64,000 nucleotides of DNA from a virus, in the IMG/VR virus record IMGVR_UViG_3300028840_004908. One strand, 5' to 3'. Below, one piece after another: positions 3,406 to 61,316 of the stretch (within the stretch, counting starts at the first letter, position 1; every line of letters starts with the position of its first letter). The translations under genes and the position numbers were made by a program. The notes below the pieces were generated by a model, which worked only from the letters and a program-made list of their open reading frames with translations, did no database searches and had not been told where the DNA came from.

Positions 3406-3503
3406 AGAAAAGGTTTGCCTTGCAAAATGCAGGTGTCTCAACCACCCTTCAAAAGACTTAACCGCATGAATCGCCATTTGCCGTGAACTTTCTTCGCATT
3501 TTT
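3406..3503 (-). promoter_or_regulatory. class I conserved upstream element, copy A
   Basis: core CTTAACCGCATGAATCGCCATTTGCCGTGAACTTTCTT (plus-strand spelling) shared with five other copies. It lies 15-50 nt 5' of the 3393 start codon. It is flanked by a duplicated TTGGAGAAAAACCATGAAAAA. Confidence 0.5.
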
Positions 3504-10469: not shown

Positions 10470-10572
10470 CTCCGCGAAAAGGTTTGCCTTGCAAATGCAG
10501 GTGTCCAAACCACCCTTCAAAAGACTTAACCGCATGAATCGCCATTTGCCGTGAACTTTCTTCGCATTTTAC
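10470..10572 (-). promoter_or_regulatory. class I conserved upstream element, copy B
   Basis: about 100 nt nearly identical to copy A (GAAAAGGTTTGCCTTGCAAATGCAGGTGTC...CTTAACCGCATGAATCGCCATTTGCCGTGAACTTTCTTCGCATTTT). Confidence 0.5.
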
Positions 10573-12621: not shown

Positions 12622-12668
12622 CCAAAAGAAAAAAAAGAGGGGCTGGGCTGAGCGGGACCCAGCCCCTC
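12622..12668 (-). terminator. rho-independent terminator downstream of the AAA+ ATPase gene
   Basis: minus-strand reading: GAGGGGCTGGG (10-nt loop) CCCAGCCCCTC then TTTTTTTTCTTTTGGG. A second hairpin GCGCCTC/GAGGCGC lies just upstream. Confidence 0.65.
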
Positions 12669-12714: not shown

Positions 12715-13944
12715 TTACTTGCGGAACATATCCTGAATGTCCCGCCCAAAGGCCATCATCGCAGCCTCGTTGTAGAGTGCCCGTTCCTCGGGCATCGTCT
12801 TGTTGAGCACGCCGTACTTCACCGCCTTGTTGATATCGCCCCAGATTTCGTACGCGTTGCCAAGGGCGACGACCAACCGTGTGGACAGTGGCGTAGCCGT
12901 GTCACCTTGCTTGAGGTGGTCACGCACCTGATTGCGGAATTTCAGGCACTGCTTGACGATGCGGTCATCCCCGATTTTGAGCCGCAGGATTTCCTCTTCC
13001 GCGTCAACGTTCCAGCTCAGTTCGAAGACAACGTCCACGCGGTCAAGCGTGCTGATGTCGAGCGCGTCGGACTGGGCGACGTAGAGGTCATCGCCTTCGC
13101 CGGTCAATCCACGGCCAATGGTATTGCCCAAGAAGGCAATCCGCATTCCGCTGTGAGCGACGACCTTGCGGCCACCGTCGTTGTCCAAGCGGATGAAGCG
13201 CTCCCCAGTGAAATCGTCGAGCAGGTTGTTCATGCCCATGGCGATGTTCGGGTCGCACTGGTTGAATTCGTCGAAGACCAACAGCGCAGGCTTTACCTTT
13301 TCCTTCACCATCTTCCCGTCGCGCTCAACTTCGATTTCCTCAACCTCATTGCCGTCCTTGTCCTTCCCGCACTGGCAAGCACGGGTCACCGGACCGTCTT
13401 GATAGACAATGTCACCGTTCTCGATGACCTGTTGGCCGTAAAAGTGCTTGGACAGCATATCGCGCTTGCAGTTGATGAGGATCAGTTCCATGTCCAGCAT
13501 CTCAGCGATGCGATGCATCAGGTGCGTTTTGCCGGTTCCCGTCGGGCCGACGATCATGGGCTTGAGGCCACCCTTCAGCGCCTCAACGATGTCGCTCAGC
13601 TCCTTGGGGTCACGGTACTCGTGGCGCGTCCGCTTGCGCTTCTTGGACTTGACTGCATCGTCCTTCTTCGATTTCTTGGTGTCAGTCGTGCCCAGTGTGG
13701 TCGCCGTGGTAGCACCAGCGGCCAGCGCCGTTCGGGACGTCAGCGTGACGGACTTACCGAACGGGTCAAGGCCCACGACCACTTTGTGCGTCCGGACAAG
13801 CTCATTCCGGACCTTGGCTTTGCGCCAGTAGTCGATGTGTCCCTCAACCGCAGGGTCGTCCCACGCGACATCAACCTTGCCATGCTGCTCGGCAAGCTTG
13901 ACGGCAGCATCAACCGCTGCCTGCTCTTTTGCGTTTAAGCTCAT
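12715..13944 (-). CDS. AAA+ ATPase, CobS/MoxR-like
   Basis: Walker A GPTGTGKTH, Walker B LLVFDEFNQ. 409 aa. GGAGGGTAAAA SD. A class I element upstream and a terminator downstream. Confidence 0.85.
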   Translation of the reverse strand: MSLNAKEQAAVDAAVKLAEQHGKVDVAWDDPAVEGHIDYWRKAKVRNELVRTHKVVVGLDPFGKSVTLTSRTALAAGATTATTLGTTDTKKSKKDDAVKSKKRKRTRHEYRDPKELSDIVEALKGGLKPMIVGPTGTGKTHLMHRIAEMLDMELILINCKRDMLSKHFYGQQVIENGDIVYQDGPVTRACQCGKDKDGNEVEEIEVERDGKMVKEKVKPALLVFDEFNQCDPNIAMGMNNLLDDFTGERFIRLDNDGGRKVVAHSGMRIAFLGNTIGRGLTGEGDDLYVAQSDALDISTLDRVDVVFELSWNVDAEEEILRLKIGDDRIVKQCLKFRNQVRDHLKQGDTATPLSTRLVVALGNAYEIWGDINKAVKYGVLNKTMPEERALYNEAAMMAFGRDIQDMFRK

Positions 13945-13989: not shown

Positions 13990-14066
13990 CCTTCAAAAGA
14001 CTTAACCGCATGCAACCCCATTTGCCGTGAACTTTCTTGACATTTTCTTAGGTTTTTTTGGCCACG
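13990..14066 (-). promoter_or_regulatory. class I conserved upstream element, copy C
   Basis: CTTCAAAAGACTTAACCGCATGCAACCCCATTTGCCGTGAACTTTCTTGACATTTTCTTAGGTTTTTTTGGCCAC. The 3' part overlaps the last codons of gene 14048..14740. Confidence 0.5.
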
Positions 14067-16848: not shown

Positions 16849-18924
16849 CTACTTATGGAACCGACCCTTGGTGATGATCTTCGCAAACGCTTTGAAAAAG
16901 CTGTGACCCATTTCCTCAACCGATTTGAGGAACACGAAATGCTTTTTCCCGTAAAACTCTTCGGGGTCTTCCGTGCCGATTCCAAAACCGTAAACTTCAA
17001 TACCGGCTTTGCGAACCTTTTCGCAAACTTTGATCAGGTTCTTTGCCATTTCCTGATTGTTGCCGTGACCACCGCAAGGCTCCCCATCAGACAGCGACAG
17101 GATGACTTTGCGGCTTTCGCGCCGTTGGCTCAGCCGTCTGGCGCACAGCTCAACTACCTCACCGTCGATGTTGTGGTTCTGCGGACGCATTTTGGTCGTG
17201 CGGACTTTCGTGCGTGCCCACGTTTCGCCAAAGCTTTTGTACAGGCTCAGCACAAGCGGATTGGTGCGGTCGTAGCCATCACGGTAAAGTTTGGAAAGGG
17301 GAGTGGGCAGACTACCGTAGCTGTACTTCGTGGTTGACCCGATCATTTCAAACGGGACATTGATGCGCGTCAGGCACTCGCCCAGCGCGATTGCGAGCAA
17401 ACGCGTGTTGTGCATTTGGCCACCGCCCATCGAGCCGGATTCGTCGATCACGATGCTCACGGCTGTGTCAAGCTTCTGACCTTTGCGCGTTTGGAAGTAA
17501 ACGTCATCGGCCAGTCTTTTCGCAATGTCAACCAGACGGCCAAGGTCAACTTCTCCTGCGCGTTTGCCGTAATCCTTGCGAGTACGGGACAGCGTTCGCA
17601 ACGCCTGCTCCAGCGCACGGGACAGGCCCATGATTTTGCTGGACACGCTGCGGCGCAGTTCATCGTACTCATGGTTGTCGTTAATGGTTGTTTTAGGAAC
17701 GTTGATTTCATCGTTCTCGCGCAGTGAGGTATAGCCACCGCGATTATCAACAGCATCCTCAATCTGGTCCTTCAACTCTTCCTGAAGCGCATGGCCCTCG
17801 TCCTCACCCTTGGCTTCCTCATCCATCTCAGCTTCGTGCTCTTCATCCGACTTTTTGTCGTCATCGCAACCAGAGGGAGCTTCCTTGTCGTCTCTGTGCG
17901 CTTTGCTATCGTTAGCCTTGTCGCTGGCCTTACCTTTACCTTCGTCACCGCTGTCGCTCTCATCGCCCTCAGCGGATTCGCCATCATCCTCATCTTCGCC
18001 CTCACCGTCATCGCCAGCGCCGTTGGCCTCGCTGTCGTCATCGCTTTCCGCGCCATCACTGCCGTTGCCCTCGCCTTCGTCCTCATCCTCAATGTCAGCG
18101 GGAGCTTCGGACTGCGAACCTTCGCCTTCACCAGACTGCTCTTCGCCATCATCCTTGGACTGGCTTTCCTGCGTCTCGCCATCATCCTTGGACTGACCCT
18201 GCTGCTGATTTTCGCTGTCCTGTTCTTCGCCCTCACCGTCATCGCCGTCCTGCGGCTGACCATTGGGCGATTTTTCCTGTTCCTGCTCAAACCCCTGCTT
18301 GGCCTGCTTAAGCAGTTCGTAAATTTCCTTGGCGAGCTTCAGGCAAGCCTTGGTGCTTTTGCAGCGAGTGACTTTGCGATACGCTTCATACGCAGCGTCA
18401 ACATAAACCTGCGCTTTTTCGGTCAGCGTCCAAGCCGGTTGGCGAGCGCGAACCATGAAGCTCATTGCGCAAAGTGCTTCCCACAACGGCGCTTCTGCCT
18501 CACCAGTGGTGATCTGTTTGGCAATGCGCTTGTTGAAGAAATCAGTGGCCCAATTAAAAACGGTTTTGCAACCTTCGTGTTCCGCAGCGCCAGCCCACTC
18601 AATCCGGCAATCCTCAAGCGAGTTGAGAATGCTGAACAGCGCACCCGTGGGCTGTTCACTCTTGCTAAGCTTGGTGAGCAGGCAGTGGAGTGATTCGTGG
18701 AAGTAGAACGCGCGAGCGGTCATGATGTTCGCAATACCATTCATCGGAGGGATGTAGAGAATTCCCTTGTGAATGTCTGCGTGGGGTGCGCCTTGGGGAA
18801 TGGGAACAATCTTGATATCGCGGTTTTTTGCGAGCCACGGAACTATGACCTTGAGGGCAGCTTCGACTTCGCGAGCCGCTTTGTCCTCAATCGCGTTCAT
18901 AGTTGCGGTTTTCGGATTGACCAT
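16849..18924 (-). CDS. von Willebrand factor A protein with long acidic tract, CobT-like
   Basis: MIDAS VSIVIDESGSMGG. About 150 aa of D/E/G/S low complexity (DDGEGEDEDDGESAEGDESDSGDEG...). 691 aa. Lies next to the AAA+ ATPase. Class I element upstream. Confidence 0.8.
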   Translation of the reverse strand: MVNPKTATMNAIEDKAAREVEAALKVIVPWLAKNRDIKIVPIPQGAPHADIHKGILYIPPMNGIANIMTARAFYFHESLHCLLTKLSKSEQPTGALFSILNSLEDCRIEWAGAAEHEGCKTVFNWATDFFNKRIAKQITTGEAEAPLWEALCAMSFMVRARQPAWTLTEKAQVYVDAAYEAYRKVTRCKSTKACLKLAKEIYELLKQAKQGFEQEQEKSPNGQPQDGDDGEGEEQDSENQQQGQSKDDGETQESQSKDDGEEQSGEGEGSQSEAPADIEDEDEGEGNGSDGAESDDDSEANGAGDDGEGEDEDDGESAEGDESDSGDEGKGKASDKANDSKAHRDDKEAPSGCDDDKKSDEEHEAEMDEEAKGEDEGHALQEELKDQIEDAVDNRGGYTSLRENDEINVPKTTINDNHEYDELRRSVSSKIMGLSRALEQALRTLSRTRKDYGKRAGEVDLGRLVDIAKRLADDVYFQTRKGQKLDTAVSIVIDESGSMGGGQMHNTRLLAIALGECLTRINVPFEMIGSTTKYSYGSLPTPLSKLYRDGYDRTNPLVLSLYKSFGETWARTKVRTTKMRPQNHNIDGEVVELCARRLSQRRESRKVILSLSDGEPCGGHGNNQEMAKNLIKVCEKVRKAGIEVYGFGIGTEDPEEFYGKKHFVFLKSVEEMGHSFFKAFAKIITKGRFHK

Positions 18925-18954: not shown

Positions 18955-19032
18955 CCACCCTTCAAAAGACTTAACCGCATGCAAGCCCACTTGCCGTGAA
19001 CTTTCTTGGTATTTTCCTAAGTTTTTTTGGGT
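18955..19032 (-). promoter_or_regulatory. class I conserved upstream element, copy D
   Basis: CCACCCTTCAAAAGACTTAACCGCATGCAAGCCCACTTGCCGTGAACTTTCTTGGTATTTTCCTAAGTTTTTTTGGG. Contains hairpin GCAAG-CCCA-CTTGC. It precedes the vWA gene start at 18924. Confidence 0.5.
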
Positions 19033-19268
19033 GTCTTTCGGTTGATTATTTTCGCCCGAGCGGTGGCTTCGACTGGTAAGCTTTGGGGGTCGCCCGAGAT
19101 TGGGCCGTAATTCACGTTTATCAGCGTCATTCGAAGCTCTTCGGTCGTTTTCTCGGCCTTTTGACAGTTGGCGAATAGGTCATCGGCTACCTCGTTCTCC
19201 TTATACGCCTGTACCGCTACGGTCCCGTCGGGATACTCCACGATAAACAGGGCCAGCTCGGTCTTCAT
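19017..19268 (-). CDS. hypothetical protein
   Basis: 83-aa minus ORF. Its stop lies inside class I copy D. Confidence 0.4.
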   Translation of the reverse strand: MKTELALFIVEYPDGTVAVQAYKENEVADDLFANCQKAEKTTEELRMTLINVNYGPISGDPQSLPVEATARAKIINRKTPKKT

Positions 19269-19663
19269 GGTTTCTTTCCTTTCGGCCAGACTCGCACGGT
19301 GATGGTTTTCCTTCCCCAGTCAACCGCCTCGTCATGCGTTTCAAAACGGACGTCAACCCTGTATCCCTTCACATCCTTGCCGGTATCGTCCGCATATATC
19401 CACGAACCGTTCTCGTTTGGGCCGCGAGTGTAGCCCGGTATATCCAAATGAGAACGGAGCGGAATCAATTCGGGGTCAACCGCTACGCCAGCTTTGTATG
19501 CGTCACGATTGATTGCGGTCAAGCCGTCGGCATGTTTCCCACAACAGATTTTGCAAGGGCAATAGCCGGTAGAATTGACCTCAATTCGCTCGCCCCAACT
19601 TAGTGGTTTACGCGATGCGCCTCCTGCGAGAAGTAGCAACGCGAAGAAAAGCATGATTTTCAT
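19265..19663 (-). CDS. secreted 3D-domain cell-wall hydrolase (MltA/YuiC-like)
   Basis: ATG 19661-19663 MKIMLFFALLLLAGGASR is a signal peptide. STGYCPCKICCG then AVDPELIPL...YADDTGKDVKGYRVDVRFETHDEAVDWG is the 3D-domain pattern with three Asp. Confidence 0.7.
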   Translation of the reverse strand: MKIMLFFALLLLAGGASRKPLSWGERIEVNSTGYCPCKICCGKHADGLTAINRDAYKAGVAVDPELIPLRSHLDIPGYTRGPNENGSWIYADDTGKDVKGYRVDVRFETHDEAVDWGRKTITVRVWPKGKKP

Positions 19664-19690
19664 TGGTTTATTATACAACGAAGAGGCATG
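19664..19690 (-). promoter_or_regulatory. class II sigma70-like promoter element (TTGTATAAT)
   Basis: minus strand GTTGTATAATAAACCAATG. The -10 box ends about 7 nt before the ATG of the 3D-domain gene, so the transcript could be leaderless. Same motif as five copies inside the mini-gene array. Confidence 0.4.
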
Positions 19691-19694
19691 GATT

Positions 19695-19943
19695 TTATGA
19701 TTTATCTTCAGAAAATTTGCCCATCAGCTTCATCAGCGTCAGGATGTCGGCGGGTAATTCGAGCGGTGGGAGTTTTCCTTCAGGCGTGTTTGTTTCATCA
19801 ATGGAATCGGCCAGCTTGTGAAATCGGTCGCCAATAAGCCGAAGCAACCCTGTATCCAATTTCTCGTTTTCTTCGAGTTGCTCCATAAACTTATCGGTCA
19901 TTGCTGTTATCTGCTTCAGGAACGCTGGGATGTTCTTACTCAT
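19695..19943 (-). CDS. hypothetical protein
   Basis: MSKNIPAFLKQ... start overlapping the upstream stop. Confidence 0.35.
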   Translation of the reverse strand: MSKNIPAFLKQITAMTDKFMEQLEENEKLDTGLLRLIGDRFHKLADSIDETNTPEGKLPPLELPADILTLMKLMGKFSEDKS

Positions 19944-20921: not shown

Positions 20922-21503
20922 CTACACTTCATTGAACTTCTCCTTGAATGCTTCAAGCGCAAGTTTTCTCTTTTCTTGCATTGGTTTGTATTTGTTCCGA
21001 TCTCTTTCACAACGCTTAAAAAGAGATTTGCCCTGATGATCAAAATCAAAAGACATTCGCAGTATATCCTGCTCTTCTTTTCTCAGTTCACACAACGTGT
21101 CGTGAACTTTCGCGCCTGTCTTTTCTCGTTGGGCAATGACATCATGGTGTAAGTCCAATCGTCGCTGATGCTCGTCAATAACAACTTTATCAGACTGGCT
21201 TCGTTCCATGATGTAAAGTGCCGTGTTTCTCATTACGGTGTATTGCATTCCCTTCTTGTAGTGTTTGTATTCTTTACCGTCCATACTTTTGGCGGCAATA
21301 ATAAGCTCAATCACAGCATCTTCTTTGGAAATGAGTTCTGTTGTCTCAAAGTTGACCCGTGACAAAATCACTTTCGCTTTGCGCTCAAGCTGCTTCCATG
21401 AATACGGTATGTCGTGAGCATCAACAAAGCATCCGCACTTTGTGCAGAAATATTTCGCTGAGAATCGATGCTTGCATTGGGGACAAGTTTTAGCTCCCAT
21501 CAT
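20922..21503 (-). CDS. hypothetical protein with N-terminal zinc ribbon
   Basis: CPQCKHRF...CTKCGC. ATGA overlap with the Pol X gene. Confidence 0.5.
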   Translation of the reverse strand: MMGAKTCPQCKHRFSAKYFCTKCGCFVDAHDIPYSWKQLERKAKVILSRVNFETTELISKEDAVIELIIAAKSMDGKEYKHYKKGMQYTVMRNTALYIMERSQSDKVVIDEHQRRLDLHHDVIAQREKTGAKVHDTLCELRKEEQDILRMSFDFDHQGKSLFKRCERDRNKYKPMQEKRKLALEAFKEKFNEV

Positions 21504-22393
21504 CTATCCTCCGGCTCAACATAGCCCATGCCCAGCGCATCGAAAACATCCTTTTCAGTGCGGCCAGCAATGGCGTCAGTGCCTTTGTATAGCCCGTACT
21601 CATTGAGTTTGAAGCCTTGATCCTTTGCCATCTGGCGCATCTTGATATTGTGATCTTTGCTGCCGGTAAAGTACAAAACACAAGCGCCAAAGCTTTCCGG
21701 CGCAATAAACCTGAAGTCAACCTGTACGCCGTTTTTAATGCCGCTGACTTTCTTCATACCGTCAACCAGAACCGTATCCAGCAGCATACTGCAATGGGCG
21801 ATTACTTTTCCCGGTTTTGTCGTCTCAACGACAATATCGATGTCGCCGATTGTTTCCTTGTAACGTCGGTAACTTCCACAGACTACCACGCGGCCAACGT
21901 GCTTGCATTTTTCAATCTTACGGACCATTGGCGCGGCAATCTTGTCAGCCTCGTTGAACGTGATCCGCTTATCGTGACCGCTCAAAACCGCCTGAACGCC
22001 TTCGCGGATGGACTTGGGCATACCGTACCCTGTCTTGATCAACCCATCAACCTGCTTGGCATTCGTGACGCCATGAACTTCATAAAGCTTAAGCGCCGTT
22101 TTCGGGCCAATGCCGGGAATCTTCATCAGCTCAAGCAGATGGAAAAACCGATCACGCAGTTCCTCAAGCTTTGGGCACGTTCCGGTTTCGACAATCTGCT
22201 TGATTTTCTTCGCAATACTGTCGCCGACGCCATCAATTGATTTGGGGTTGTGCAAATCGACGCCCGGACACTGCTTGATTGTTGACGCTGCCGTGGCGTA
22301 TGACCGTGTTTTGTATGGGCTTTCACCGGCCAGACCAGACAGGCTGGCGAGTTCGTAAAGCGCATCGGCAACCTTGATACGTATGTCGCTCAT
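21500..22393 (-). CDS. DNA polymerase family X (pol beta-like)
   Basis: helix-hairpin-helix IPGIGPKTALKLYE. Nucleotidyltransferase motif GSYRRYKETIGDIDIVV. 297 aa. Confidence 0.85.
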   Translation of the reverse strand: MSDIRIKVADALYELASLSGLAGESPYKTRSYATAASTIKQCPGVDLHNPKSIDGVGDSIAKKIKQIVETGTCPKLEELRDRFFHLLELMKIPGIGPKTALKLYEVHGVTNAKQVDGLIKTGYGMPKSIREGVQAVLSGHDKRITFNEADKIAAPMVRKIEKCKHVGRVVVCGSYRRYKETIGDIDIVVETTKPGKVIAHCSMLLDTVLVDGMKKVSGIKNGVQVDFRFIAPESFGACVLYFTGSKDHNIKMRQMAKDQGFKLNEYGLYKGTDAIAGRTEKDVFDALGMGYVEPEDR

Positions 22394-23123: not shown

Positions 23124-23465
23124 CTACCTTTGCATTTTGGTGATGAGCACGAGTTCGCCCTTGTCGATGTTGAAGGCGCGATACACGGGCTTACCGTTTT
23201 CGTCAGCCCGTTCCAACGTGACCAGCAGCGTGAGGATCAAATCCCCAGCTTTGGACTTCCAAATGCGCTCGACCTGTCCCGTGTAGCGGGTCTTCTCAAT
23301 CCCGAGGTCATCTGCGCGTTTGGCTTCCTCAATCGCCTTGGCAGAAGCCACGCGGCCCGGAATGCGATGGTACATGAAATGCACGTAGCTCCCAACGCCG
23401 TGAACGGCATTCTGAGCGCACGTGTCCAGCACCGCTTTGATTTCGTTTGCGTCCATTTTCTTCAT
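23124..23465 (-). CDS. hypothetical protein
   Basis: MKKMDANEIKAV... start abutting the ligase stop. Confidence 0.45.
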   Translation of the reverse strand: MKKMDANEIKAVLDTCAQNAVHGVGSYVHFMYHRIPGRVASAKAIEEAKRADDLGIEKTRYTGQVERIWKSKAGDLILTLLVTLERADENGKPVYRAFNIDKGELVLITKMQR

Positions 23466-24352
23466 TAGTTTTTCCCCTTTCCGACGTTTATCAAGGGCAA
23501 CAGACTTTCCCAAGTGCAATCGTCTGTCTTCTTGTCCGTTCTAAACCGCACAAAGCTGGGATGTCGCAAACTCCCGCTTTTGAAAACCTTGTTGCATTTG
23601 ATCTCAGCAACCTTCCATTTGTATTTCTTGAAGTCAGCCGCAATGTCAATCTTGAGTTGATGCGGCATGCTTCCAACCTTGACCATGCTCACAAGCTTGC
23701 CATCTTTGAGAACGCCGCACAAAATGTACTTGGCGGCTCGCAAGCCCTTTTTCTTGAAGGTCACCGCGCCAGTTTCCTGCCAACCCATGACGATCATATC
23801 CACGGTCATTTCGCGCTTGCACTTGATCCAGTACGGACTACGCGTCCCGCCTTTGTATGGCGTGGGCATACCTTTTACAAGTTTCAGAACCAGCCCTTCA
23901 TCCTCGCGCCCGTAACGGAACCTGAAATTGCTGTTCCAGCGTGGATTGAGCAGAAACCATTCTTTGGCCTCGTCACTCCAACTGTCATAAGCCGATTTCA
24001 AGAAGTTGCGTCGCACAGGATCATCGTGCTCAGTGATGTCTTTGTAATCAATCCGCAGGATGTCGTACACATCCATGAACTCATGCCCGATGGATTTCTG
24101 ACGTTCCAGCGCTGCTTGCTGCCCAATCCCAAGCTCGCCAACGATGACCGTTCCAGCGGGCAGTTGCGGAAATTCAACGGCTTGAGGCAAACCACTGCGG
24201 CCCCAAATGCGCTGTTCACGATCAACTGCCTTGACGATGCCCCAGTTGCCGTCGCGCTTTGGTTCAGCAACGTACTTGCCGGTTTTCTCGTATACGTCAA
24301 GTTCATCTGGGCTGATGTGTCCATCGCAACCCATGTACAAGGGATGGCTCAT
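23465..24352 (-). CDS. ATP-dependent DNA ligase (small, T7/Chlorella-virus-like)
   Basis: motif I KRDGNWG, motif III VIVGELG, motif IV EGLVLK, motif V WIKCKRE. AAGGATG SD before ATG 24352. Confidence 0.9.
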   Translation of the reverse strand: MSHPLYMGCDGHISPDELDVYEKTGKYVAEPKRDGNWGIVKAVDREQRIWGRSGLPQAVEFPQLPAGTVIVGELGIGQQAALERQKSIGHEFMDVYDILRIDYKDITEHDDPVRRNFLKSAYDSWSDEAKEWFLLNPRWNSNFRFRYGREDEGLVLKLVKGMPTPYKGGTRSPYWIKCKREMTVDMIVMGWQETGAVTFKKKGLRAAKYILCGVLKDGKLVSMVKVGSMPHQLKIDIAADFKKYKWKVAEIKCNKVFKSGSLRHPSFVRFRTDKKTDDCTWESLLPLINVGKGKN

Positions 24353-24602
24353 TTTACATCCTTTCATTTTAAGTCAAAGCGACTTTGGATGTCCACTTTG
24401 TCGCGAGTGACGGGGTCTATTCTTCCGGCTACTCCAACAAGTGGAACACCAGAGTGGCTTTAACCACCCAAGCTTCATATCAAACACCTCGCTTCCTTTC
24501 AACAAGGTTTTGTCACGCTGGAACTGGGTCCGCACGGGAAAACGTTCCCCGTGCGGTTGGGTTCTGGGGTCATGTTAGCCCATTGGCAGTGCCCTCCTCA
24601 TT

Positions 24603-24732: not shown

Positions 24733-24808
24733 CCTTTCGAAAGACTTAACCGCATGCAAGCCCACTTGCCGTGAACTTTCTTGGTATTTTTCTAAGTTTT
24801 TTTGGCCA
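24733..24808 (-). promoter_or_regulatory. class I conserved upstream element, copy E
   Basis: CCTTTCGAAAGACTTAACCGCATGCAAGCCCACTTGCCGTGAACTTTCTTGGTATTTTTCTAAGTTTTTTTGGCCAC. Followed by AGGAGGG and an ATG at 24721-24723 opening a 40-aa signal-peptide-like ORF. Confidence 0.5.
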
Positions 24809-30435: not shown

Positions 30436-30490
30436 CATTTGCCGTGAACTTTCTCAGATTTTTCCTCATTTATTGTCTACCACCGGGTGC
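30436..30490 (-). promoter_or_regulatory. class I conserved upstream element, copy F (more divergent)
   Basis: CTTAACCGCATTTCCAACCATTTGCCGTGAACTTTCTCAGATTTTTCC. It lies 55 nt 5' of ATG 30382. Confidence 0.45.
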
Positions 30491-35647: not shown

Positions 35648-35851
35648 TTATGGCAACTCGTGAAACAGTCCTATAGTTGCATTGTGATGGATGCCATATT
35701 CTTGGATAATTCCTTGAAACGCATTTTCGTCATAAGCCACAGATTGTCCCAAGCGATTGCGTTGCATATTTTCTGAAAAAGCGCCCATCGCCTGAATCAA
35801 GGCACAAGAAGCCTGAGCGAAAATATAAGCAGCTTTTTGTTCATCCGTCAT
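35648..35851 (-). CDS. hypothetical protein (non-family) downstream of a class II promoter
   Basis: MTDEQKAAYIFAQASCALIQAMGAF... AAAGGAGAGAAGT SD. Confidence 0.35.
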   Translation of the reverse strand: MTDEQKAAYIFAQASCALIQAMGAFSENMQRNRLGQSVAYDENAFQGIIQEYGIHHNATIGLFHELP

Positions 35852-35865
35852 ACTTCTCTCCTTTC

Positions 35866-35985
35866 AACTCTTTGAGCCTTTCGTTGAAGACACGATCACT
35901 TGGTTAATTATACAATTAAATCGCTTGATTTTTGCTATTTTTCTTGAGGAGGGTTGAGAAAAATGTTGCTCGATTTTTGGTGATT
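35866..35985 (-). promoter_or_regulatory. class II conserved promoter element (TTGTATAAT), copy 1
   Basis: minus strand CAACATTTTTCTCAACCCTCCTCAAGAAAAATAGCAAAAATCAAGCGATTTAATTGTATAATTAACCAAGTGATCGTGTCTTCAAC. About 90% identical to the copies at 40.7 kb and 46.9 kb. Confidence 0.5.
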
Positions 35986-36159
35986 TTGCATCAAGTGCTC
36001 TAAGATGTACGGGCAGTTATCAGGGATTTCACTGTTGGTATCATATTGAGTATACACTCCAAAGCCACCGGGTTTATCAAGGCGGCAGCTCCATGTTTTA
36101 TCCTTTGTTGAGTTCCATTGCTTTTTCCAGCACTGTTTACAGATTGCTTTGTTCAGCAT
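35935..36159 (-). CDS. Cys4 mini-protein family member
   Basis: MLNKAICKQC...CPYILEHLMQNHQ. The C-terminal tail runs into the class II element. Confidence 0.55.
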   Translation of the reverse strand: MLNKAICKQCWKKQWNSTKDKTWSCRLDKPGGFGVYTQYDTNSEIPDNCPYILEHLMQNHQKSSNIFLNPPQEK

Positions 36160-38590: not shown

Positions 38591-38672
38591 TCACTTCACC
38601 ATTTCAGTTTTGTGCGGGCAATAGTGTGGCGGCTTATCGACAGATGCTTCTACTCAGCATTTTGCGTTTCCA

Positions 38673-40284: not shown

Positions 40285-40528
40285 GTTGTGCGTCCATCAA
40301 ATGTTCCAAGCTGTATCCGCAGTGGTCAGGCGGTTTTTGAACCTGTGTATTTTCAACCGCCCCTTTCGGAGTCACGCATAGCACAGCGCCATTCTTCCAC
40401 GTTATGTCATCGATGTCCCGCCATCTGAAAGCAGACAATGCCCCTGTGCAGATTTTATTGCGGCATTTTTCACAAACTGCTTTGCTTAGCATTGAGTTTC
40501 CATCAAATGTTCGAGAGCGAATGGACAT
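40274..40528 (-). CDS. Cys4 mini-protein family member
   Basis: internal MLSKAVCEKC...CGYSLEHLMDAQ. Confidence 0.55.
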   Translation of the reverse strand: MSIRSRTFDGNSMLSKAVCEKCRNKICTGALSAFRWRDIDDITWKNGAVLCVTPKGAVENTQVQKPPDHCGYSLEHLMDAQHAE

Positions 40529-40669
40529 CTACTTCTTGGTTCAGAGTCAGGACGCACCATACAAGCACACTTTGGATCAACTATGAAACTACACAGCCAA
40601 TAGCCGATCTGCTTGTGACCTTCAAAAAAGAATTTGCACTTTTTACAAACTTGTTTACTCAGCATTCCG
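40486..40669 (-). CDS. Cys4 mini-protein family member downstream of a class II promoter
   Basis: MLSKQVCKKC...CPFALEHLMETQ. The track ORF 40486..40779 reads through the promoter element. The true start is MLSK. Confidence 0.55.
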
Positions 40670-40690
40670 AAACTCCGTCTCGCGAGTTTT

Positions 40691-40800
40691 GAAGACACGC
40701 TCGCTTGGTTAATTATACAATTAAATCGCTTGATTTTTGCTGGTTTTTTTGAGGAAGGTTGAGAAAAAATGTTGCTCAATTTTTGCCTTTAATAATCGAG
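40691..40800 (-). promoter_or_regulatory. class II conserved promoter element (TTGTATAAT), copy 2
   Basis: minus strand GAGCAACATTTTTTCTCAACCTTCCTCAAAAAAACCAGCAAAAATCAAGCGATTTAATTGTATAATTAACCAAGCGAGCGTGTCTTCAA. It lies 40 nt before the ATGCTGAGT start. Confidence 0.5.
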
Positions 40801-40812
40801 GAGTGAAAAATT

Positions 40813-41094
40813 TCATTGATTTTGCATCAGATGTTCGAGACAATAAGGGCATTTAGCTTTCCCTCGAAAATCGCAATAGAACGTCGCCCTCAAAGGATTT
40901 TCAATGCACTTGCGGCAATATTCATACATCAATCTTCTCAAGTCTTCGCTTGATCTTTTCATCAACATCTTGGCCCTTGCTTCCACCGTTTCATCTTTTG
41001 GCGATGTTACGCCCTCTTCGTACAGTCTATTGAACGCAATAAAAACTGCCATGCCCGCTTTGTCTCTGATCCTTTTGACTTTCTTATTCGGCAA
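40813..41094 (-). CDS. Cys4 mini-protein family member (divergent N-terminus)
   Basis: ...CRKC...CPYCLEHLMQNQ. Confidence 0.45.
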   Translation of the reverse strand: MPNKKVKRIRDKAGMAVFIAFNRLYEEGVTSPKDETVEARAKMLMKRSSEDLRRLMYEYCRKCIENPLRATFYCDFRGKAKCPYCLEHLMQNQ

Positions 41095-42419: not shown

Positions 42420-42650
42420 CATTTTGACTTTCTATCAAGTGCTCAAGGCTGTAGGGACAACGAGCAGGCGCGAAACCATCAATACTCGGAAAAGGAGCCA
42501 ATCCACCCCAATTGAACCATCGGTGAGTAATTGGACACGGTGCTTCTTTGCGTTCCCAAAACATTTCAGGACATCCGGTGTCTCGATGTTGCTTGATCCA
42601 TTTGAGTGGCGTATGTTCTTTTTCTCAGCATTTTTTGCAGATAGTTTTAC
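42420..42650 (-). pseudogene. Cys4 mini-gene family member interrupted by an in-frame TGA
   Basis: ATGCTAAGTAAAACTATCTGCAAAAAATGCTGA (MLSKTICKKC-stop). The frame then continues ...PARCPYSLEHLIESQNVE. No intact ORF of 60 aa or more on the minus strand here. Confidence 0.4.
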
Positions 42651-42889: not shown

Positions 42890-43336
42890 TCATTCTCCAT
42901 ATAATTCGCACTCAAAGGAGAACGGTTTGACGATGGTGGCGTCAAGCATTATGGGAACAAGCCACGTTATATTATAGACAAGCGGCATAGAATAGAGTTC
43001 TTGAACTGGAACGAATCTGAGTTCTTCATCTGTCATCGTTTTAGGTTTTTTTGAATCACCTTGGATGACGGCGAAGACATGCAAAATCCATTTAGGACTG
43101 TTGATAGTTATTTTATGAATCCAGTTTTCTTCATGAACATCTGTTTCTTCTTTGAACTCGCGTATCATTGCTTGAAGTGGCGTTTCTCCTTCTTCGATAT
43201 GCCCTCCGATACCATTGTAAAGTCCTGCCTGCCATTGTGGTCGTTTCTTTTTTATAAGAAGAACGGATGGCTTTTTTTGGAACATATCAAAGTAAAAGCC
43301 AACAACAAATTTCGTCTTAGCCATTGTTCCCTCCAA
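42890..43336 (-). CDS. Nudix hydrolase
   Basis: Nudix box GHIEEGETPLQAMIREFKEETDV. 148 aa. Confidence 0.75.
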   Translation of the reverse strand: MEGTMAKTKFVVGFYFDMFQKKPSVLLIKKKRPQWQAGLYNGIGGHIEEGETPLQAMIREFKEETDVHEENWIHKITINSPKWILHVFAVIQGDSKKPKTMTDEELRFVPVQELYSMPLVYNITWLVPIMLDATIVKPFSFECELYGE

Positions 43337-46583: not shown

Positions 46584-46850
<267 letters not shown>

Positions 46851-46865: not shown

Positions 46866-46940
46866 ATTTTCACTGGTTAATTATACAACTAAAAATCTTG
46901 ATTTTTGCGGTTTTTATTGAGAAGAAGTGAGAAAAATTTA
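46866..46940 (-). promoter_or_regulatory. class II conserved promoter element (TTGTATAAT), copy 3
   Basis: minus strand AAAAACCGCAAAAATCAAGATTTTTAGTTGTATAATTAACCAGTG. Confidence 0.45.
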
Positions 46941-47195
46941 CTGACTTTTCATCAAATGTTCGAGCGCGTAAGGACATTGCTTATTCTTCAAATACAACCT
47001 TGTTTCCACGTGACCATCTGCATAGTTACTCGCGTAGCTCTCGATGATGTTTTGCCCTTGACTCAGCACGTACAGCAAGCACTTCTTTTGGCAACGCTCG
47101 CAGATTTCAACCTGTATTTCAACCCACTCTTGACCTTTTTCGTCAACGTTTATCGACATCACGCTTCCATCAAATGTTCGAGAACGAAAGGGCAC
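46938..47195 (-). CDS. Cys4 mini-protein family member
   Basis: ...ICERCQKKC...CPYALEHLMKSQ. Confidence 0.5.
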   Translation of the reverse strand: MPFRSRTFDGSVMSINVDEKGQEWVEIQVEICERCQKKCLLYVLSQGQNIIESYASNYADGHVETRLYLKNKQCPYALEHLMKSQ

Positions 47196-49647: not shown

Positions 49648-49918
49648 TTGAACTTCCTTTCTGAGTCATCAAGTGCTCCAAAACGTAAGGGCAGTAACAA
49701 GGTATTTCTGAATCAGTTCCAATGGGCCTGCTTTCTTTTATTCTATAGCTACATAAGGTACCCGTATATCCTGATAAACGATTGGATTTTTCCCAATGTG
49801 AATGATCCCACATCTGATCAAATTTTTTCAACCACTTCTCAGGGGTATGGTCTGGTATCAACTCGCTTCCTTTGGTGCGCGCCCACGGGCATTTGATACA
49901 GATGCTTTTACTCAACAC
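49637..49918 (-). CDS. Cys4 mini-protein family member
   Basis: MLSKSICIKC...CPYVLEHLMTQ. Confidence 0.55.
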   Translation of the reverse strand: MLSKSICIKCPWARTKGSELIPDHTPEKWLKKFDQMWDHSHWEKSNRLSGYTGTLCSYRIKESRPIGTDSEIPCYCPYVLEHLMTQKGSSNGG

Positions 49919-50762
49919 TGATCTTTCCTTCTGCTTTCAATTTTTTAAGCGCAAAATAGATCGTGCAATTCGAAAGGTTCACCCGTTTGGCAATCCAACG
50001 GGCAGTCTTTCCAGCCTGCCAGTGTTTCTGAATAGTCCTCATTTTTCTTGGCGTCAATTTGATATCTTGCTTTTTGAAACCGAGTTTTCTGCACCACCTA
50101 CTAACAGCCGCTTCAGTCACGCTCAAATGATCAGCAATTTCCTTTTGTGATTTTCCTGCTTTTCTCATCTCATAAACTTCACGGATTTCTGATTCACAAA
50201 GGCGTTTATACTTTGATTTTTGCAGCCGTTCCATTTTCGTGCTTGGCTTCTTCGGCGCTCCAATGTTAGGGACAAACAACTTTAAGAAATCAGACCGTGT
50301 ACAACATAGCAAATGATCTGGCCTTACACATCTTTTGTTCCCACATACCTGTGTCAGAATATAATTCTTTGGAATAGGGCCGCGCAACATTTCCCAAGCA
50401 ATCCGGCTGGGGCGCGAAGTTTTCCCCCCGATCCGTATGAATCTCATCGTCTTATCAGTCCAAACCCAACAATCATTTTCCTTTTCAACCTTTTCCCAAA
50501 AATCTTTTTCAATATTTTCGTTGCCAAAACGCATATGCTCTGGTCGTATGCAATTTGAATTCTTACACGTGATGAAAAACTTTCTGTTATTGATTTTTTT
50601 ACCTGTTACAAGTTCAAAAAGAACATTCCTTGGTCTTCTGATTACGCTGTTCCCTCTTTCGCTTTGAAAGAAAAAGTGATTGGGCCTCCCAGTCCAGATC
50701 AAACATTCCCCTTGAGGCTTGACTTTTGATAAGAATCGTTTTCTATCTTTCTCTGGAATCAT
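49908..50762 (-). CDS. HNH homing-endonuclease-like protein (two HNH_3-type modules + C-terminal HTH)
   Basis: GECLIWTG...SNCIRPEHMRFG and NDCWVWTD...RIAWEML...CGNKRCVRPDHLL. C-terminal HTH SQKEIADHLSVTEAAVSRWCRK. Confidence 0.75.
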   Translation of the reverse strand: MIPEKDRKRFLSKVKPQGECLIWTGRPNHFFFQSERGNSVIRRPRNVLFELVTGKKINNRKFFITCKNSNCIRPEHMRFGNENIEKDFWEKVEKENDCWVWTDKTMRFIRIGGKTSRPSRIAWEMLRGPIPKNYILTQVCGNKRCVRPDHLLCCTRSDFLKLFVPNIGAPKKPSTKMERLQKSKYKRLCESEIREVYEMRKAGKSQKEIADHLSVTEAAVSRWCRKLGFKKQDIKLTPRKMRTIQKHWQAGKTARWIAKRVNLSNCTIYFALKKLKAEGKISVE

Positions 50763-52419: not shown

Positions 52420-52564
52420 CCCCTATCCAACGGTGTATTGCGGCTCGGCAATTGACGCTTCCGTGTTTCCAGTTGAATTCGTCATATTCGACGTTCCAAT
52501 GTCGCAATATTTCCTTTTCAGCATTGAAACATCTTTTACAGACTTCTTTACTCAGCATTTTCAA
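52334..52564 (-). CDS. Cys4 mini-protein family member
   Basis: MKMLSKEVCKRC...CPFPLEHLLDTQDAE. Confidence 0.55.
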   Translation of the reverse strand: MKMLSKEVCKRCFNAEKEILRHWNVEYDEFNWKHGSVNCRAAIHRWIGDAGVSIQGNPPPECPFPLEHLLDTQDAE

Positions 52565-53439
52565 AACCTATAAGCTTGTCCTTCGCGAGCAAACCCCGCA
52601 AAGTCTGTGATGTCTTGTTCTTTCCAATTATCCGCGTAATGTATGAGCATCATCTTGCTCTTGTACTTTCCCGGCAACGTTTTGATATCAGCCAACGGAG
52701 CGTGTACGGCTCCCGGAAAGAACTGCACATCATGAAACATCGCTTCTGACCTGTCGCCATACATCTCGACGAGTTCCGGGTCAAAACGTGTATCGCCTGA
52801 AATGAAAATGCGGTCATCAATAAACAGCCCGTAGCTGATGAATGACTCTTCCCACGAGCCAGATTGTTCTGGAATATGTTTCGTGCGGAAAAGCTCAATC
52901 TTGAGTTTTGTACCAAGACCCGTGTCCATCTCAACCTCAAAAATCTCGCGTGGTTGCTTCTTCTTCCACGTTGGACGAATGACGTCGAAGAAGTCGGTGA
53001 AGTCCAACTTCTGACCGGAATTATCATCCATCTCGTTCCACTCAAGACCACCGCGTAGCGTTTGATCCCAAAGCGTGTTCTGATACGCTTCAGTGACAAT
53101 CATACGTAGCTTGCGCTTCTTCAGATGCCTGCGGCCAACGTAACGATTCATCAACGCAAGACATTCAATACCCCCAACGTGGTCTGCGTGCGAATGAGTT
53201 GGCAACAGCAATTCAATGTCAGAAGGGTCAAGGAAAGCAGATTCTCGCAACGCCCGAGGGCCAGTCATCCCAAAATCAACGAGGATATGCCTGTTGCCTT
53301 TGACGATGATAAAGTTGGTTTGGTGCATCGTCTTTGCAAAAGCAGCTCCCACGCCTATGAAACAGATGTCCAAGTCGCCTTTGTTAGACAATGGAAACCT
53401 TTTCATGCCAATGTCCGTAGCGTCCATTCTATCAGTCAT
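52561..53439 (-). CDS. metallo-beta-lactamase-fold hydrolase
   Basis: HxHxDH motif LLPTHSHADHVGG. 292 aa. Confidence 0.75.
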   Translation of the reverse strand: MTDRMDATDIGMKRFPLSNKGDLDICFIGVGAAFAKTMHQTNFIIVKGNRHILVDFGMTGPRALRESAFLDPSDIELLLPTHSHADHVGGIECLALMNRYVGRRHLKKRKLRMIVTEAYQNTLWDQTLRGGLEWNEMDDNSGQKLDFTDFFDVIRPTWKKKQPREIFEVEMDTGLGTKLKIELFRTKHIPEQSGSWEESFISYGLFIDDRIFISGDTRFDPELVEMYGDRSEAMFHDVQFFPGAVHAPLADIKTLPGKYKSKMMLIHYADNWKEQDITDFAGFAREGQAYRF

Positions 53440-55721: not shown

Positions 55722-55960
55722 AACAAATCCTTCCGCGAACCATGTGTATACATTGCAGCAATAGCAAACGCAACCATTACCATTGCTTGTACTTTGATTT
55801 CAGCAAAAGCTTCTGCTCTGGTCGTTTCCAACATATCAAGGCTGTTTGGAATCATGAATAGGTAGAAAATAATCTTCAAAGCGCTGATAGCGAGAATGAT
55901 CACGCAGAAAAGCTCAAGGAAAATCAAAACCTTTTCAATAGTTTCTCTTTGTACTTTCAT
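55718..55960 (-). CDS. small two-helix membrane protein
   Basis: VLIFLELFCVIILAISALKIIFYLFMI and AMVMVAFAIAAMY hydrophobic segments. 80 aa. Confidence 0.4.
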   Translation of the reverse strand: MKVQRETIEKVLIFLELFCVIILAISALKIIFYLFMIPNSLDMLETTRAEAFAEIKVQAMVMVAFAIAAMYTHGSRKDLL

Positions 55961-56541
55961 ACCTTGAAACCTTTCCCCAAAAAGTAACTCAGCATTCTGC
56001 CGCTCAATACACAGCCTTTCTCTCTGGCTGCTTTCAAAAACTTTTCTACGTCTATTACGATGTGAACCTCAATGCGTTCGCCAAGATCAAGGTCTTGTTT
56101 GGGCGCTTTCCGGTTCGCATAAAACTTTTCGTCAATTGTGACCAACGTCGTATAAACCTGCTCTCCGCTCATCCCCGGAGAACTGAACGAAGGTGGAGAA
56201 ACATGGTCAACAACCCCTTCATAACCTGTTTCCTCTTTGAGTTCTCTCAACGCGGCTTGTTCAATCGTTTCGCCCTTATCGATCAACCCCGCAGGAAATT
56301 CAATCACACTTCCAAGAGCAGGTGGGCGAAATTGCTGTACCAAAAGGTAATGGCCAGACGGCTGAAATTGAGAAATGACGTTCACCGCCTTGACTTGGTT
56401 CTTTCTATCAGCGCTTTCCCACTCCCGCTGTTTTTCACCGTCGTGATATTTCAACCGCTTCAAAACAAGATGATCGCCTTGTCCAATAATTTCTTCACTT
56501 TCCATTTTCATCGCAAACCTCTTCATCGTTTTCCTCCACAA
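55957..56541 (-). CDS. Nudix hydrolase (ADP-ribose pyrophosphatase-like)
   Basis: canonical Nudix box GLIDKGETIEQAALRELKEETGYEG. The start is probably the internal MKRFAMKMESEE. Confidence 0.75.
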   Translation of the reverse strand: MWRKTMKRFAMKMESEEIIGQGDHLVLKRLKYHDGEKQREWESADRKNQVKAVNVISQFQPSGHYLLVQQFRPPALGSVIEFPAGLIDKGETIEQAALRELKEETGYEGVVDHVSPPSFSSPGMSGEQVYTTLVTIDEKFYANRKAPKQDLDLGERIEVHIVIDVEKFLKAAREKGCVLSGRMLSYFLGKGFKV

Positions 56542-56689
56542 TAGGAACGTCCCGCCATTGGATTTCTTGCTTTATGAATCTTCCTTGTATGGCGTAAGCC
56601 TGTTGCAATACAATCTTTCCATCCTTGACCAACCAGCGCAACTGATTGGTTGCTGAGTAGACAGGCATCACGTTCTCCCGATACGTTTC

Positions 56690-56712
56690 CTTGTTAAATT
56701 ATACAATTTCGA
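56690..56712 (-). promoter_or_regulatory. class II promoter element (TTGTATAAT), copy 4 (short)
   Basis: minus strand GGCGTCGAAATTGTATAATTTAACAAG. A sub-60-aa ORF MPVYSATNQLRW... (about 56497..56652) follows. Confidence 0.4.
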
Positions 56713-56775
56713 CGCCCAAATTTTGCTGAAATTCAATTGGTTTTGTCTTTTAATTTAGGCCGGAAGGCATGATGT

Positions 56776-57333: not shown

Positions 57334-57650
57334 GAACCCTTCTTATCGGAAATTCTCGCAAGACTCCTGAGTATATCCGTCATAGGCTGACAGTTTGCTT
57401 TCTTGGCTACAATATCAGCAATCTTGTTCCAACCAGACGACGTTGTACCTGCCGCAATTCCCATCATCTCATTTAACTTTTTGATTTCAGCAAGAGCGTT
57501 ATGCAACGCGACAACGTCAGATTTAATTCGCCGTTTGAGCCTCAAATTCTCGTCAACAAGCTTTCCAATTTCTTTGTGGAGCATCTTGATGCGACTTTCC
57601 CGTTCGGAAAGCTTCTCTTCAATCTCATCAATTATATCTTGCTGTTTCAT
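57327..57650 (-). CDS. coiled-coil hypothetical protein
   Basis: MKQQDIIDEIEEKLSERESRIKMLHKEIGKLVDENLRLKRRIK heptad-like sequence. Confidence 0.45.
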   Translation of the reverse strand: MKQQDIIDEIEEKLSERESRIKMLHKEIGKLVDENLRLKRRIKSDVVALHNALAEIKKLNEMMGIAAGTTSSGWNKIADIVAKKANCQPMTDILRSLARISDKKGSW

Positions 57651-58333
57651 TTTGAACTCCCAGCAAGCCAGCGTTCATAAACCGTAAGCAAGTTAATATA
57701 ATCTACACTGGGCGCGCCAATTCTGACATAACTCGTCGCCTTCTTAACGGCATCCGTTACGTTCAAACTTTCTGTCTTCATCAAATATCCAGCGTGTAAC
57801 GCGCCAGTTCTATCAGCACCAGACATGCAATGAAAAGCGACAGCCGTCTTTTTCTTGTTTTGAAACAACTCAATTAGATAGTCAACACAACCCGAAAAGT
57901 TCCAACCGTCTGGCGCAACGGCGTTGTGCGCTTCCGTTTTGTCTGATGGGTTGTGAACTCCGGTCAAAGGCCACCAGACAAAAGAACCGTCGTGCTCTTT
58001 TCCTTCAACTTTGAATTGTGTTCCGTAAAACGTTTTTGGGTTCCAAATTTTTGAATAACTCCACGGTGGGAATTTATCGCTCGGGAAATGGTCATCAATC
58101 CATTGCTTTGAAATTCCAAAAGACTGAAACTCAGTTTTCCAAACAAAACGTTCACCAGTATCTTCGAGCAAGCAGAAATCAACGAATGTATATTTTGTCA
58201 AGTCAGTTTTAAGAATGGTTTGAAGTTCATCCAAAGCAATTGCGCTATCTTCTATCAAATTGGGGCACCGCATGAGCAAATTGGTTTTGTTCTGAGCAAT
58301 GATCGCAGTATTGTTGGATGTGATATTACTCAT
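57647..58333 (-). CDS. Cys-based protein-tyrosine/dual-specificity phosphatase family protein
   Basis: CX5R P-loop VAFHCMSGADRTGALHAGYLM. 228 aa. Confidence 0.7.
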   Translation of the reverse strand: MSNITSNNTAIIAQNKTNLLMRCPNLIEDSAIALDELQTILKTDLTKYTFVDFCLLEDTGERFVWKTEFQSFGISKQWIDDHFPSDKFPPWSYSKIWNPKTFYGTQFKVEGKEHDGSFVWWPLTGVHNPSDKTEAHNAVAPDGWNFSGCVDYLIELFQNKKKTAVAFHCMSGADRTGALHAGYLMKTESLNVTDAVKKATSYVRIGAPSVDYINLLTVYERWLAGSSK

Positions 58334-61065: not shown

Positions 61066-61295
61066 AGAGAATCCCTGTTAGCTCGTTTAGCAAAAACAAC
61101 TTCAAAAGTTATTCGTCGTCGTCTTCAGCTTCTTCGCCAGAACACAATTTCCAACACTGACAGTCATCACCCCGACAGAGCAATGACGTCCATTTGTCTT
61201 CTGGAATACCTTGTTTTGCAACAAGACCAGCGGTCAAGATAGGACACATCTTCCGTTGCTCGTCAGCCATTACATTCCTCCTTTAGAAAAATAGA

Positions 61296-61316
61296 TTGCT
61301 AAATTATACAATCTCA
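61296..61316 (-). promoter_or_regulatory. class II promoter element (TTGTATAAT), copy 5 (short)
   Basis: minus strand GAGATTGTATAATTTAGCAATC. Followed by AAAGGAGGAATGTA SD and a 53-aa acidic ORF starting at ATG 61268-61270. Confidence 0.4.

Follow-up and report, generated by a model that had tools for sequence, protein, structure and literature searches.

Recurrent intergenic TATAAT elements of an uncultured jumbo phage resemble a family of -10-driven promoters

Introduction

The middle promoters of phage T4 combine a sigma70-type -10 box with a MotA box centred near -30 and are read through the appropriation of sigma by MotA and AsiA, while the middle and late promoters of the Thermus phage P23-45 are of the extended -10, -35-independent type. 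Among bacterial and phage transcripts, the lambda cI mRNA made from PRM exemplifies a message without a leader. Early promoters of T4-type phages are found in PeSL (promoter-early stem-loop) cassettes, blocks of ~100 bp with AT-rich upstream regions and a stable, usually G+C-rich stem-loop that acts as a terminator, which lie among small genes and mediate modular shuffling (Arbiol et al., 2010, PMC2839356; Comeau et al., 2014, PMC4122927). In jumbo phages, the early promoters used by the virion-packaged RNA polymerase consist of a conserved, AT-rich motif of ~10 nt at -10, have no -35 box and precede early operons (PMC7598289), and differential RNA sequencing of phiKZ yielded a motif described as an 'extended -10 box plus T-rich upstream' and no leaderless transcripts (PMC8244752). 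Here, we analyse a recurrent intergenic element, termed Class II, in a stretch of viral DNA of 64,000 nt (IMG/VR record IMGVR_UViG_3300028840_004908), referred to as the window, which to a large part consists of an array of small paralogous genes.

The Class II element is real and statistically solid and, judged from its sequence, belongs to a well-known kind, the phage promoter family, with modest anomalies. Its copies are probably -10-driven promoters that are read by a sigma70-family holoenzyme, most likely the host RNA polymerase with its primary sigma factor. Our proposals on promoter activity, start points, the reading polymerase and timing are based on sequence, position, statistics and the recurrence of the motif in a related phage.

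Results

The window contains six exact copies of the nine-base motif TTGTATAAT (19670–19678, 35907–35915, 40712–40720, 46880–46888, 56698–56706 and 61303–61311), all of them on the minus strand, which is the strand of the genes. Shuffled sequences held 0.32 copies on average and two at most, and a search with the 17-nt core TTGTATAATTAACCAAG that allowed up to three mismatches returned the same six sites and no others, with 0.13 expected. All six copies fall into the 5.6% of the minus strand that lies outside open reading frames (ORFs) of at least 40 aa. Minus-strand TATAAT hexamers occur 12 times in the window; the six without a TTG prefix are mostly intragenic, apart from one at 1058 in an ORF-free gap and one at 1749 just upstream of a gene start. 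Variants of TTGTATAAT with a single mismatch number five per strand, which corresponds to background, and all lie inside genes. Since exact copies are enriched and near-copies are not, the motif appears to be all-or-none. These data bear out the recurrent TATAAT-containing element that a first-pass annotation of the window had listed at the six sites. The wider motif search proposed in that annotation added a seventh copy ~7 kb past the right window end (L007:2904), again intergenic and on the gene strand. A literature search for the 9-mer returned only primers and unrelated sequences. The six window sites are:

35884–35990, minus strand: long Class II copy 1, with GCAAAA at 35930–35935, TTGTATAAT at 35907–35915 and a predicted +1 near 35900–35901
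40689–40835, minus strand: long Class II copy 2, with GCAAAA at 40735–40740 and TTGTATAAT at 40712–40720
46866–46945, minus strand: long Class II copy 3, with GCAAAA at 46903–46908 and TTGTATAAT at 46880–46888
56690–56726, minus strand: short Class II site reading GCAAAA-TTTGGGCGTCGAAA-TTGTATAAT-TTAACAAG, of the same subfamily as L007:2904
61295–61331, minus strand: short Class II site with GGAAAT at -35 to -30
19662–19698, minus strand: short Class II site upstream of the 3D-domain gene, showing ATAAAA at -35 to -30, TATAAT at 19670–19675 and, 6 nt on, the ATG at 19663

All sites occupy the position of a canonical promoter, being intergenic and on the same strand as the downstream gene, and the distance from TATAAT to the start codon is bimodal, with 5–6 nt (to an ATG) or 22–55 nt and no values in between. 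The longer intervals in the window amount to 55 nt (start at 35851), 46 nt (40665), 29 nt (46850), 29 nt (56668) and 32 nt (61270), and Shine-Dalgarno (SD)-like sequences can be read before the starts that have a leader. The first-pass annotation had placed an SD and a start codon after each element, at 35851, 40669, 46850, 56652, 61270 and 19663. An SD-like sequence is indeed present at the five window sites with a leader, but not at 19663, and two of the starts had to be corrected, to 40665 and 56668, whereas the others stand. The first genes downstream of the elements are:

35648–35851, minus strand: first gene after copy 1, 67 aa, not a member of the array family, SD-like GGAGAG
40486–40665, minus strand: first gene after copy 2, 59 aa, array-family member beginning MLSKQVCKKC
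46584–46850, minus strand: first gene after copy 3, 88 aa, starts with TTG, outside the array family
56495–56668, minus strand: first gene after the 56706 site, 57 aa, followed by a NUDIX gene at 55957–56526
61109–61270, minus strand: first gene after the 61311 site, 53 aa, SD AAAGGAGG
19265–19663, minus strand: 3D-domain protein gene, hydrophobic N-terminus, candidate for a leaderless or nearly leaderless mRNA

A perfect tetranucleotide repeat at 46588–46634, (CTTG)11.8 on the plus strand and (CAAG)n or (AAGC)n in the coding direction, lies at the 3' end of the gene after copy 3 and is translated as (SKQA)n; if one unit were added or lost, the reading frame would change.

At the 3D-domain gene, the sequence reads TATAAT-AAACCA-ATG, with the ATG at 19663 and without an SD; the public gene call for the protein uses a second in-frame ATG, 9 nt further in, and neither start leaves room for an SD. 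The copy at L007:2904 reads TATAAT-ATTAT-ATG, with the ATG being the start of a called gene of 83 aa (L007:2918). Together with two sites in related phages (L017:18426 and L013:12769), the layout TATAAT-N5/6-ATG at a gene start was thus found four times in three phages. With a start point ~7 nt after the hexamer, the transcripts from the 3D-domain and L007:2904 sites would have the A of the AUG, or a base adjacent to it, as their first nucleotide. The leaderless 3D-domain transcript suggested earlier is therefore supported as a prediction, and the sequences around 19663, L007:2918, L017:18441 and L013:12780 all support a leaderless mRNA. As in known leaderless messages, the -10 hexamer ends 5–6 nt before the ATG and an SD is absent; the present cases differ in being predicted only and in that the 3D-domain gene has the second in-frame ATG.

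Members of the array family led to two further phages, relative A (L011–L016 and L019) and relative B (L017/L018). Relative B is divergent, with family proteins that are ~30% identical, a G+C content of 39.6% and flanks that share no DNA similarity. Its 18.9 kb nevertheless contain three copies of TTGTATAAT, compared with 0.45 expected, all intergenic and on the gene strand. One of them has a TTGTCA-N18 -35 box upstream and an SD and an MLSK gene downstream, another lies before an SD and an ATG, and the third (L017:18426) reads TATAAT-AGCACC-ATG at the start of the called gene L017:18441; the three share no block in the -35 region. Between L017:15400 and L017:15880, two near-perfect canonical sites, TTGACT-N17-TATAAT and TTGACT-N16-TATAAT, are found within 400 nt in gaps of the array, so that canonical -35/-10 sites with the same TATAAT occur beside the motif. 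Sites of this near-perfect kind are absent from 84 kb of the window phage. In relative A, TATAAT-CTCTC-ATG precedes an MLSK gene (L013:12769, with the ATG at L013:12780), and the core region shows TGgTATAAT, in the classical extended -10 register, in two gaps (L019:5209 and L019:17191).

To describe the anatomy of the element, we aligned the six window sites and L007:2904, with TATAAT numbered as -12 to -7. The hexamer is perfect at all seven sites, in agreement with the -10 box annotated at each window site in the orientation of the genes (six of six), and it is directly preceded by an invariant TTG at -15 to -13 (7/7). Most copies share a start region of the form (T/A)(T/A)A(A/C/G)CAA. The A-rich, UP-like upstream region noted in the first-pass annotation is recovered as an AT-rich stretch at -65 to -36 (AT fraction 0.72, compared with 0.58 ± 0.086 in random 29-mers of the array). 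Positions -35 to -30 read GCAAAA at five of the seven sites and ATAAAA or GGAAAT at the other two. In all five cases, GCAAAA lies exactly 14 nt upstream of the TTG, which gives a fixed spacer of 17 nt to the hexamer and makes the block a candidate activator box of the kind seen in sigma appropriation. The five sites form two subfamilies with different spacers (atcaagcgatttaa versus tttgggcgtcgaaa), one comprising the three long copies and the other the 56706 site and L007:2904, whose spacers share GGGCGT. The recurrence of GCAAAA at this distance has a probability of ~1e-5 for two of four independent lineages, and both subfamilies retain the same 17-nt spacing despite differing spacers, as would be expected if a protein made contact in two parts.

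Several observations weigh against the view that these sites are -10-driven promoters for a sigma70-family enzyme. A TTGACA-like -35 box, expected 16–18 bp upstream, is absent from every site; GCAAAA is not a known -35 box; and a generic sigma70 consensus scan, which demands at least four of six matches in the -35 hexamer, called none of the six sites and detected no excess of promoter-like sites over shuffles in the window. The element shares with extended -10 promoters a perfect TATAAT, a G/T-containing extension just upstream and the lack of a usable -35 hexamer, but its TTG abuts the hexamer, such that the TG lies at -14/-13 instead of the -15/-14 of classical TGnTATAAT. The earlier designation as host sigma70-type promoters consequently holds for the perfect TATAAT and the AT-rich upstream region, but not for the -35 region or for the TTG, which is off register by one base. 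GCAAAA is also common on the gene strand, where its 93 copies reflect its place in the conserved 3' end of array genes (...CAAAATGCTGAGTAA), so that part of its recurrence may be inherited through shared ancestry. The array of relative A contains no intergenic TTGTATAAT, and the 3D-domain orthologues of four other phages (55–63% identity) have no TATAAT upstream, the gene being located inside operons or behind other sequences, which suggests that the 3D-domain promoter is specific to this phage. Finally, with a genome of at least 338 kb, an AT-rich -10 motif of ~10 nt without a -35 box would also fit the early promoters of jumbo-phage virion polymerases (PMC7598289).

The GCAAAA block raises the question of whether a phage factor is involved, either an activator or co-activator that binds GCAAAA and works with the host polymerase or a phage sigma factor that reads the entire bipartite motif; the promoters would then be of the middle rather than the immediate-early class. 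This arrangement would parallel T4 middle promoters, where a good -10 box is likewise found at a fixed spacing from a conserved block that is not of the sigma70 type and stands in for the -35 box. It is favoured by the conservation of a non-canonical block at -35 to -30 with constant spacing but variable spacer sequence, by the fact that no site passes the -35 test and by the TTGACT boxes of relative B, whose host is presumably related, which make it improbable that GCAAAA is the host's own -35 consensus. The unrelated Class I element, whose six copies mark the other gene block (see below), also fits the existence of more than one promoter class. However, GCAAAA is unrelated to the MotA box in the given orientation, it is missing at two of the seven sites, and the three sites of relative B have no common block at this position. 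Moreover, no sigma, MotA-like or AsiA-like domain was detected with Pfam and PHROG in ~38 window and flank proteins, although such factors often escape recognition. Taken together, we regard a requirement for a phage factor as rather unlikely. The same holds for the more far-reaching proposal that GCAAAA-N14-TTGTATAAT reflects a phage-specific redirection of transcription, in which a sigma factor or appropriation-type activator replaces -35 recognition and drives both a hyper-expanded array of more than 80 small zinc-ribbon-like genes and leaderless mRNAs; we would give it only a minor chance. In that case, the off-register TTG may be a new -10-proximal contact, and the host may perhaps belong to a poorly studied lineage.

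Array-family proteins are recorded on contigs of up to 338 kb, which identifies the source of the window as an uncultured jumbo phage and raises the possibility that the sites are early promoters of a multisubunit RNA polymerase that is encoded by the phage and packaged in the virion, as in jumbo phages of the phiKZ or AR9 type. Like such promoters, the Class II sites feature an invariant AT-rich 9–12-mer at -10, lack a -35 box and are positioned ahead of blocks of small genes, presumably early operons, in agreement with the general description (PMC7598289) and with the phiKZ motif (PMC8244752). Yet the hexamer is the exact sigma70 consensus, relative B pairs the same TATAAT with a canonical TTGACT -35 box, and the second block at the -35 position, with its fixed spacing, points to a bipartite contact of the sigma type. 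In addition, the candidates for leaderless mRNAs have no counterpart in phiKZ (PMC8244752). An RNA-polymerase-like protein was not found among the proteins scanned from ~84 kb of this genome of at least 338 kb or from the loci of the relatives, and a PDB sequence search with a 1018-aa protein of relative A gave no match. A virion polymerase thus appears to be an improbable reader of these sites.

The long copies offer additional information. All three align over ~105 nt. The copies at 35915 and 40720 are 91% identical without gaps over approximately -55 to +15 (93/108 with gaps) and remain conserved for ~20 nt beyond the predicted start, while their identity outside the core drops to the random level of 27–37%. 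The copy at 46888 matches the other two at 80–81 of 107 positions (~75%), so that the roughly 90% identity originally reported applies to copies 1 and 2 but not to copy 3. Given these random flanks, and since the genes on both sides of the long copies are not specially related, a larger duplication does not explain the similarity of the copies. The ORF upstream of copy 1 runs into the element and stops at 35935, and at the 61311 site, the upstream gene has its stop codon (ATT GTA TAA) within TTGTATAAT. Copy 2 has an extra partial tandem duplication of its upstream half at ~40797–40835, a segment that resembles the 3' end of array genes (ATGCAAAATCAATGA). The core of the long copies, TTAATT-GTAT-AATTAA (35899–35922), forms a near-perfect dyad around the -10 box and could be an operator. 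Other assemblies of the phage, six of the region and four more of its flanks, are 99.9–100% identical and free of indels. Public contigs break at the long copies: the JGI contig Ga0180429_10000030 ends at copy 2 with a 105-nt fold-back, and a Logan contig has its first base within copy 1. The unusual 105 nt at the beginning of L003, beside copy 2, represent this fold-back, an assembly artefact, and not a recombination junction.

Some of these properties would suit a function other than transcription, with the elements being relics of array duplication, recombination hot-spots or sites for a DNA-binding protein. The sequence GCAAAA(A)TCAAG resembles the array-gene 3' end, copy 2 is partially duplicated in tandem, the long copies resemble each other more closely than promoter function by itself would demand, assemblies are interrupted at the repeat and the dyad symmetry is near-perfect. 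Relics, however, would not keep an exact 9-mer in seven of seven copies while the spacers diverge, would not without exception be oriented like the genes and spaced from start codons as promoters are, and would not be found again in a relative that lacks DNA similarity in the flanks. A role in recombination, in turn, does not compete with promoter function but can accompany it, as illustrated by PeSLs (PMC2839356). We therefore judge a non-promoter origin to be very unlikely.

Even less probable, to the point of being barely tenable, is that the ~100 nt act as RNA, in the form of a structured 5' untranslated region (UTR), a small RNA, an intrinsic terminator or an attenuator. The conservation of copies 1 and 2 past the predicted start would be in line with such a role, but the upstream halves of the long elements and the predicted leaders form no more stable folds than shuffled sequences (z between -0.6 and +1.4), no terminator-like hairpin is predicted in any element-bearing gap, and the window has no Rfam match and no tRNAs. 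A combined terminator and promoter was rejected for the same lack of terminators in the gaps. The idea that the promoters split the array into several transcription units is hence plausible with respect to new starts, but not with respect to ends: as nothing terminates the upstream transcripts, transcription would restart rather than proceed in insulated units. The only strong intrinsic-terminator-like site in the window is located at 12637–12668 (minus strand), just after the CobS-like gene, with a 12-bp stem, nine G-C pairs and a T8 tract.

All coding genes of the window are on the minus strand. The block at 1–30.5 kb comprises larger genes, including:

16849–18924, minus strand: CobT-like
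12715–13944, minus strand: AAA_5/CobS-like
21500–22393, minus strand: family-X DNA polymerase
23465–24367, minus strand: ligase-like protein

The remainder (30.6–64 kb) is the array, which consists of at least 78 small paralogous genes (48–105 aa), all on the minus strand, and continues past the right window end (L007). Its family signature, MLSKxxCxxC...C...CP[YF]xLEHLMETQ, contains four invariant cysteines; a variant ending in LELLM occurs in a sub-block at 31.0–32.3 kb. Many successive array genes overlap by 11 nt (ATGCTGAGTAA; ..CAAAATGCTGAGTAA), with the NAE* of one gene lying over the MLSK of the next, and the chain of overlapping, translationally coupled small genes is interspersed with a few unrelated ones. 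Several apparent gaps (among them 38591–38672, 42565–42646 and 49814–49907) are truncated or frameshifted family genes (e.g., ATGCTGAGTAGAAGCATCTGTCGATAA, MLSRSICR*), and the array therefore contains pseudogenes. The unrelated genes embedded in it encode an Apyc1-like protein with a metallo-beta-lactamase fold (anti-Pycsar family, E = 4e-32; 52561–53439), an HNH endonuclease with HTH domains (49908–50762), two NUDIX hydrolases (42890–43324 and 55957–56526) and a dual-specificity-phosphatase-like protein (57647–58333). The G+C content steps from 47–54% in the larger-gene block (8–28 kb) to 40–42% in the array, and relative A shows the same contrast (52.5% in core locus L019, 42% in the array).

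The array family is very rare: a search of 5.8 billion proteins yielded 33 matches, none of them from outside this phage and a small number of relatives. The window sequence itself was found in several assemblies, including an ENA contig of 181,979 bp. A near-identity search with 6 kb against cultured phages returned no match, a CobT protein search gave only distant matches (at most 32% identity) and no close cultured phage, and neither the 19-nt core nor CobT had a match in IMG/VR. Just outside the window, a phage nucleotidyltransferase (RmlA-like; L007:7682–8392) lies near a dTDP-sugar isomerase; its best matches are from Paenibacillus (68%) and from many Planctomycetota/Phycisphaerae metagenome-assembled genomes (53–64%), which gives a weak hint at the host lineage.

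The larger-gene block has a recurrent intergenic element of its own, Class I. It contains AAGAAAGTTCACGGCAA within ~90 conserved nt (..CCAAAAAAACTTAGGAAAATACC AAGAAAGTTCACGGCAA GTGGGCTTGCATGCGGTTAAGTCTTTTGAAGG..), is devoid of TATAAT and occurs in six minus-strand copies that are confined to 3–30.5 kb (3478–3494, 10546–10562, 14022–14038, 18991–19007, 24766–24782 and 30439–30455) and precede, among others, the CobT-like, CobS-like and DUF6744 genes. It may represent a different promoter class or a 5'-UTR element.

Discussion

A promoter function best accounts for the position and strand of the Class II elements, their all-or-none conservation, the bimodal distance to the start codon, the recurrence of TATAAT-N5/6-ATG and the presence of the 9-mer in a divergent relative. 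A sigma70-family holoenzyme is suggested by the perfect match to the sigma70 -10 consensus and by the co-occurrence with canonical -35 boxes in relative B, and the host enzyme with its primary sigma factor is the simplest candidate. In the mechanism that we propose, the -10 region would do most of the work, with minus-strand transcription starting ~7 nt downstream of the perfect TATAAT. The functional core would comprise the invariant TTGTATAAT and the conserved start region, supplemented upstream by the AT-rich, UP-like stretch and by GCAAAA at -35 to -30 in place of a TTGACA-type -35 box. Situated at breaks in a chain of translationally coupled genes, the promoters would allow transcription to restart without ending the transcripts that arrive from upstream. 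The window sites with a leader would yield leaders of ~22–48 nt that contain an SD-like sequence, whereas the transcripts of the 3D-domain gene and of one gene just outside the window would begin with the A of the ATG.

Among the described systems, PeSL cassettes of T4-type phages come closest to the long copies. In both cases, intergenic blocks of ~100 bp with a strong -10 box and an AT-rich upstream region are repeated and followed by an SD and a start codon, and they are scattered among small genes, here an array of at least 78 paralogues that houses all three long copies, while being much more alike than the surrounding genes, which makes them natural substrates for homologous recombination. 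As homologous blocks in unrelated flanks, the long copies could therefore serve as recombination points in the manner of PeSLs. The differences lie in the absence of a G+C-rich stem-loop or terminator and of a sigma70-consensus -35 box, in the fact that only three of the seven sites are long and that the phage is not T4-like, and in the lack of an indel bounded by the element, with the available variants all identical and the relatives too divergent to align. Based on this comparison, the long copies are PeSL-like in some respects but not members of the class.

Families of near-identical promoters are common in phages, and the finding is in this sense routine. However, two anomalies, the off-register TTG and the non-canonical block at -35, could be signs of a specificity factor encoded by the phage. 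Promoters throughout the genome and in relatives could be annotated with the exact 9-mer and the block at a fixed distance from it, and the elements could provide portable parts once the host is known. If active, the Class II elements would give a first handle on how an uncultured phage of ~340 kb expresses a 30-kb array of overlapping small paralogous genes, showing where transcription restarts, which gene comes first in each unit and that leaderless mRNAs are used in this phage group.

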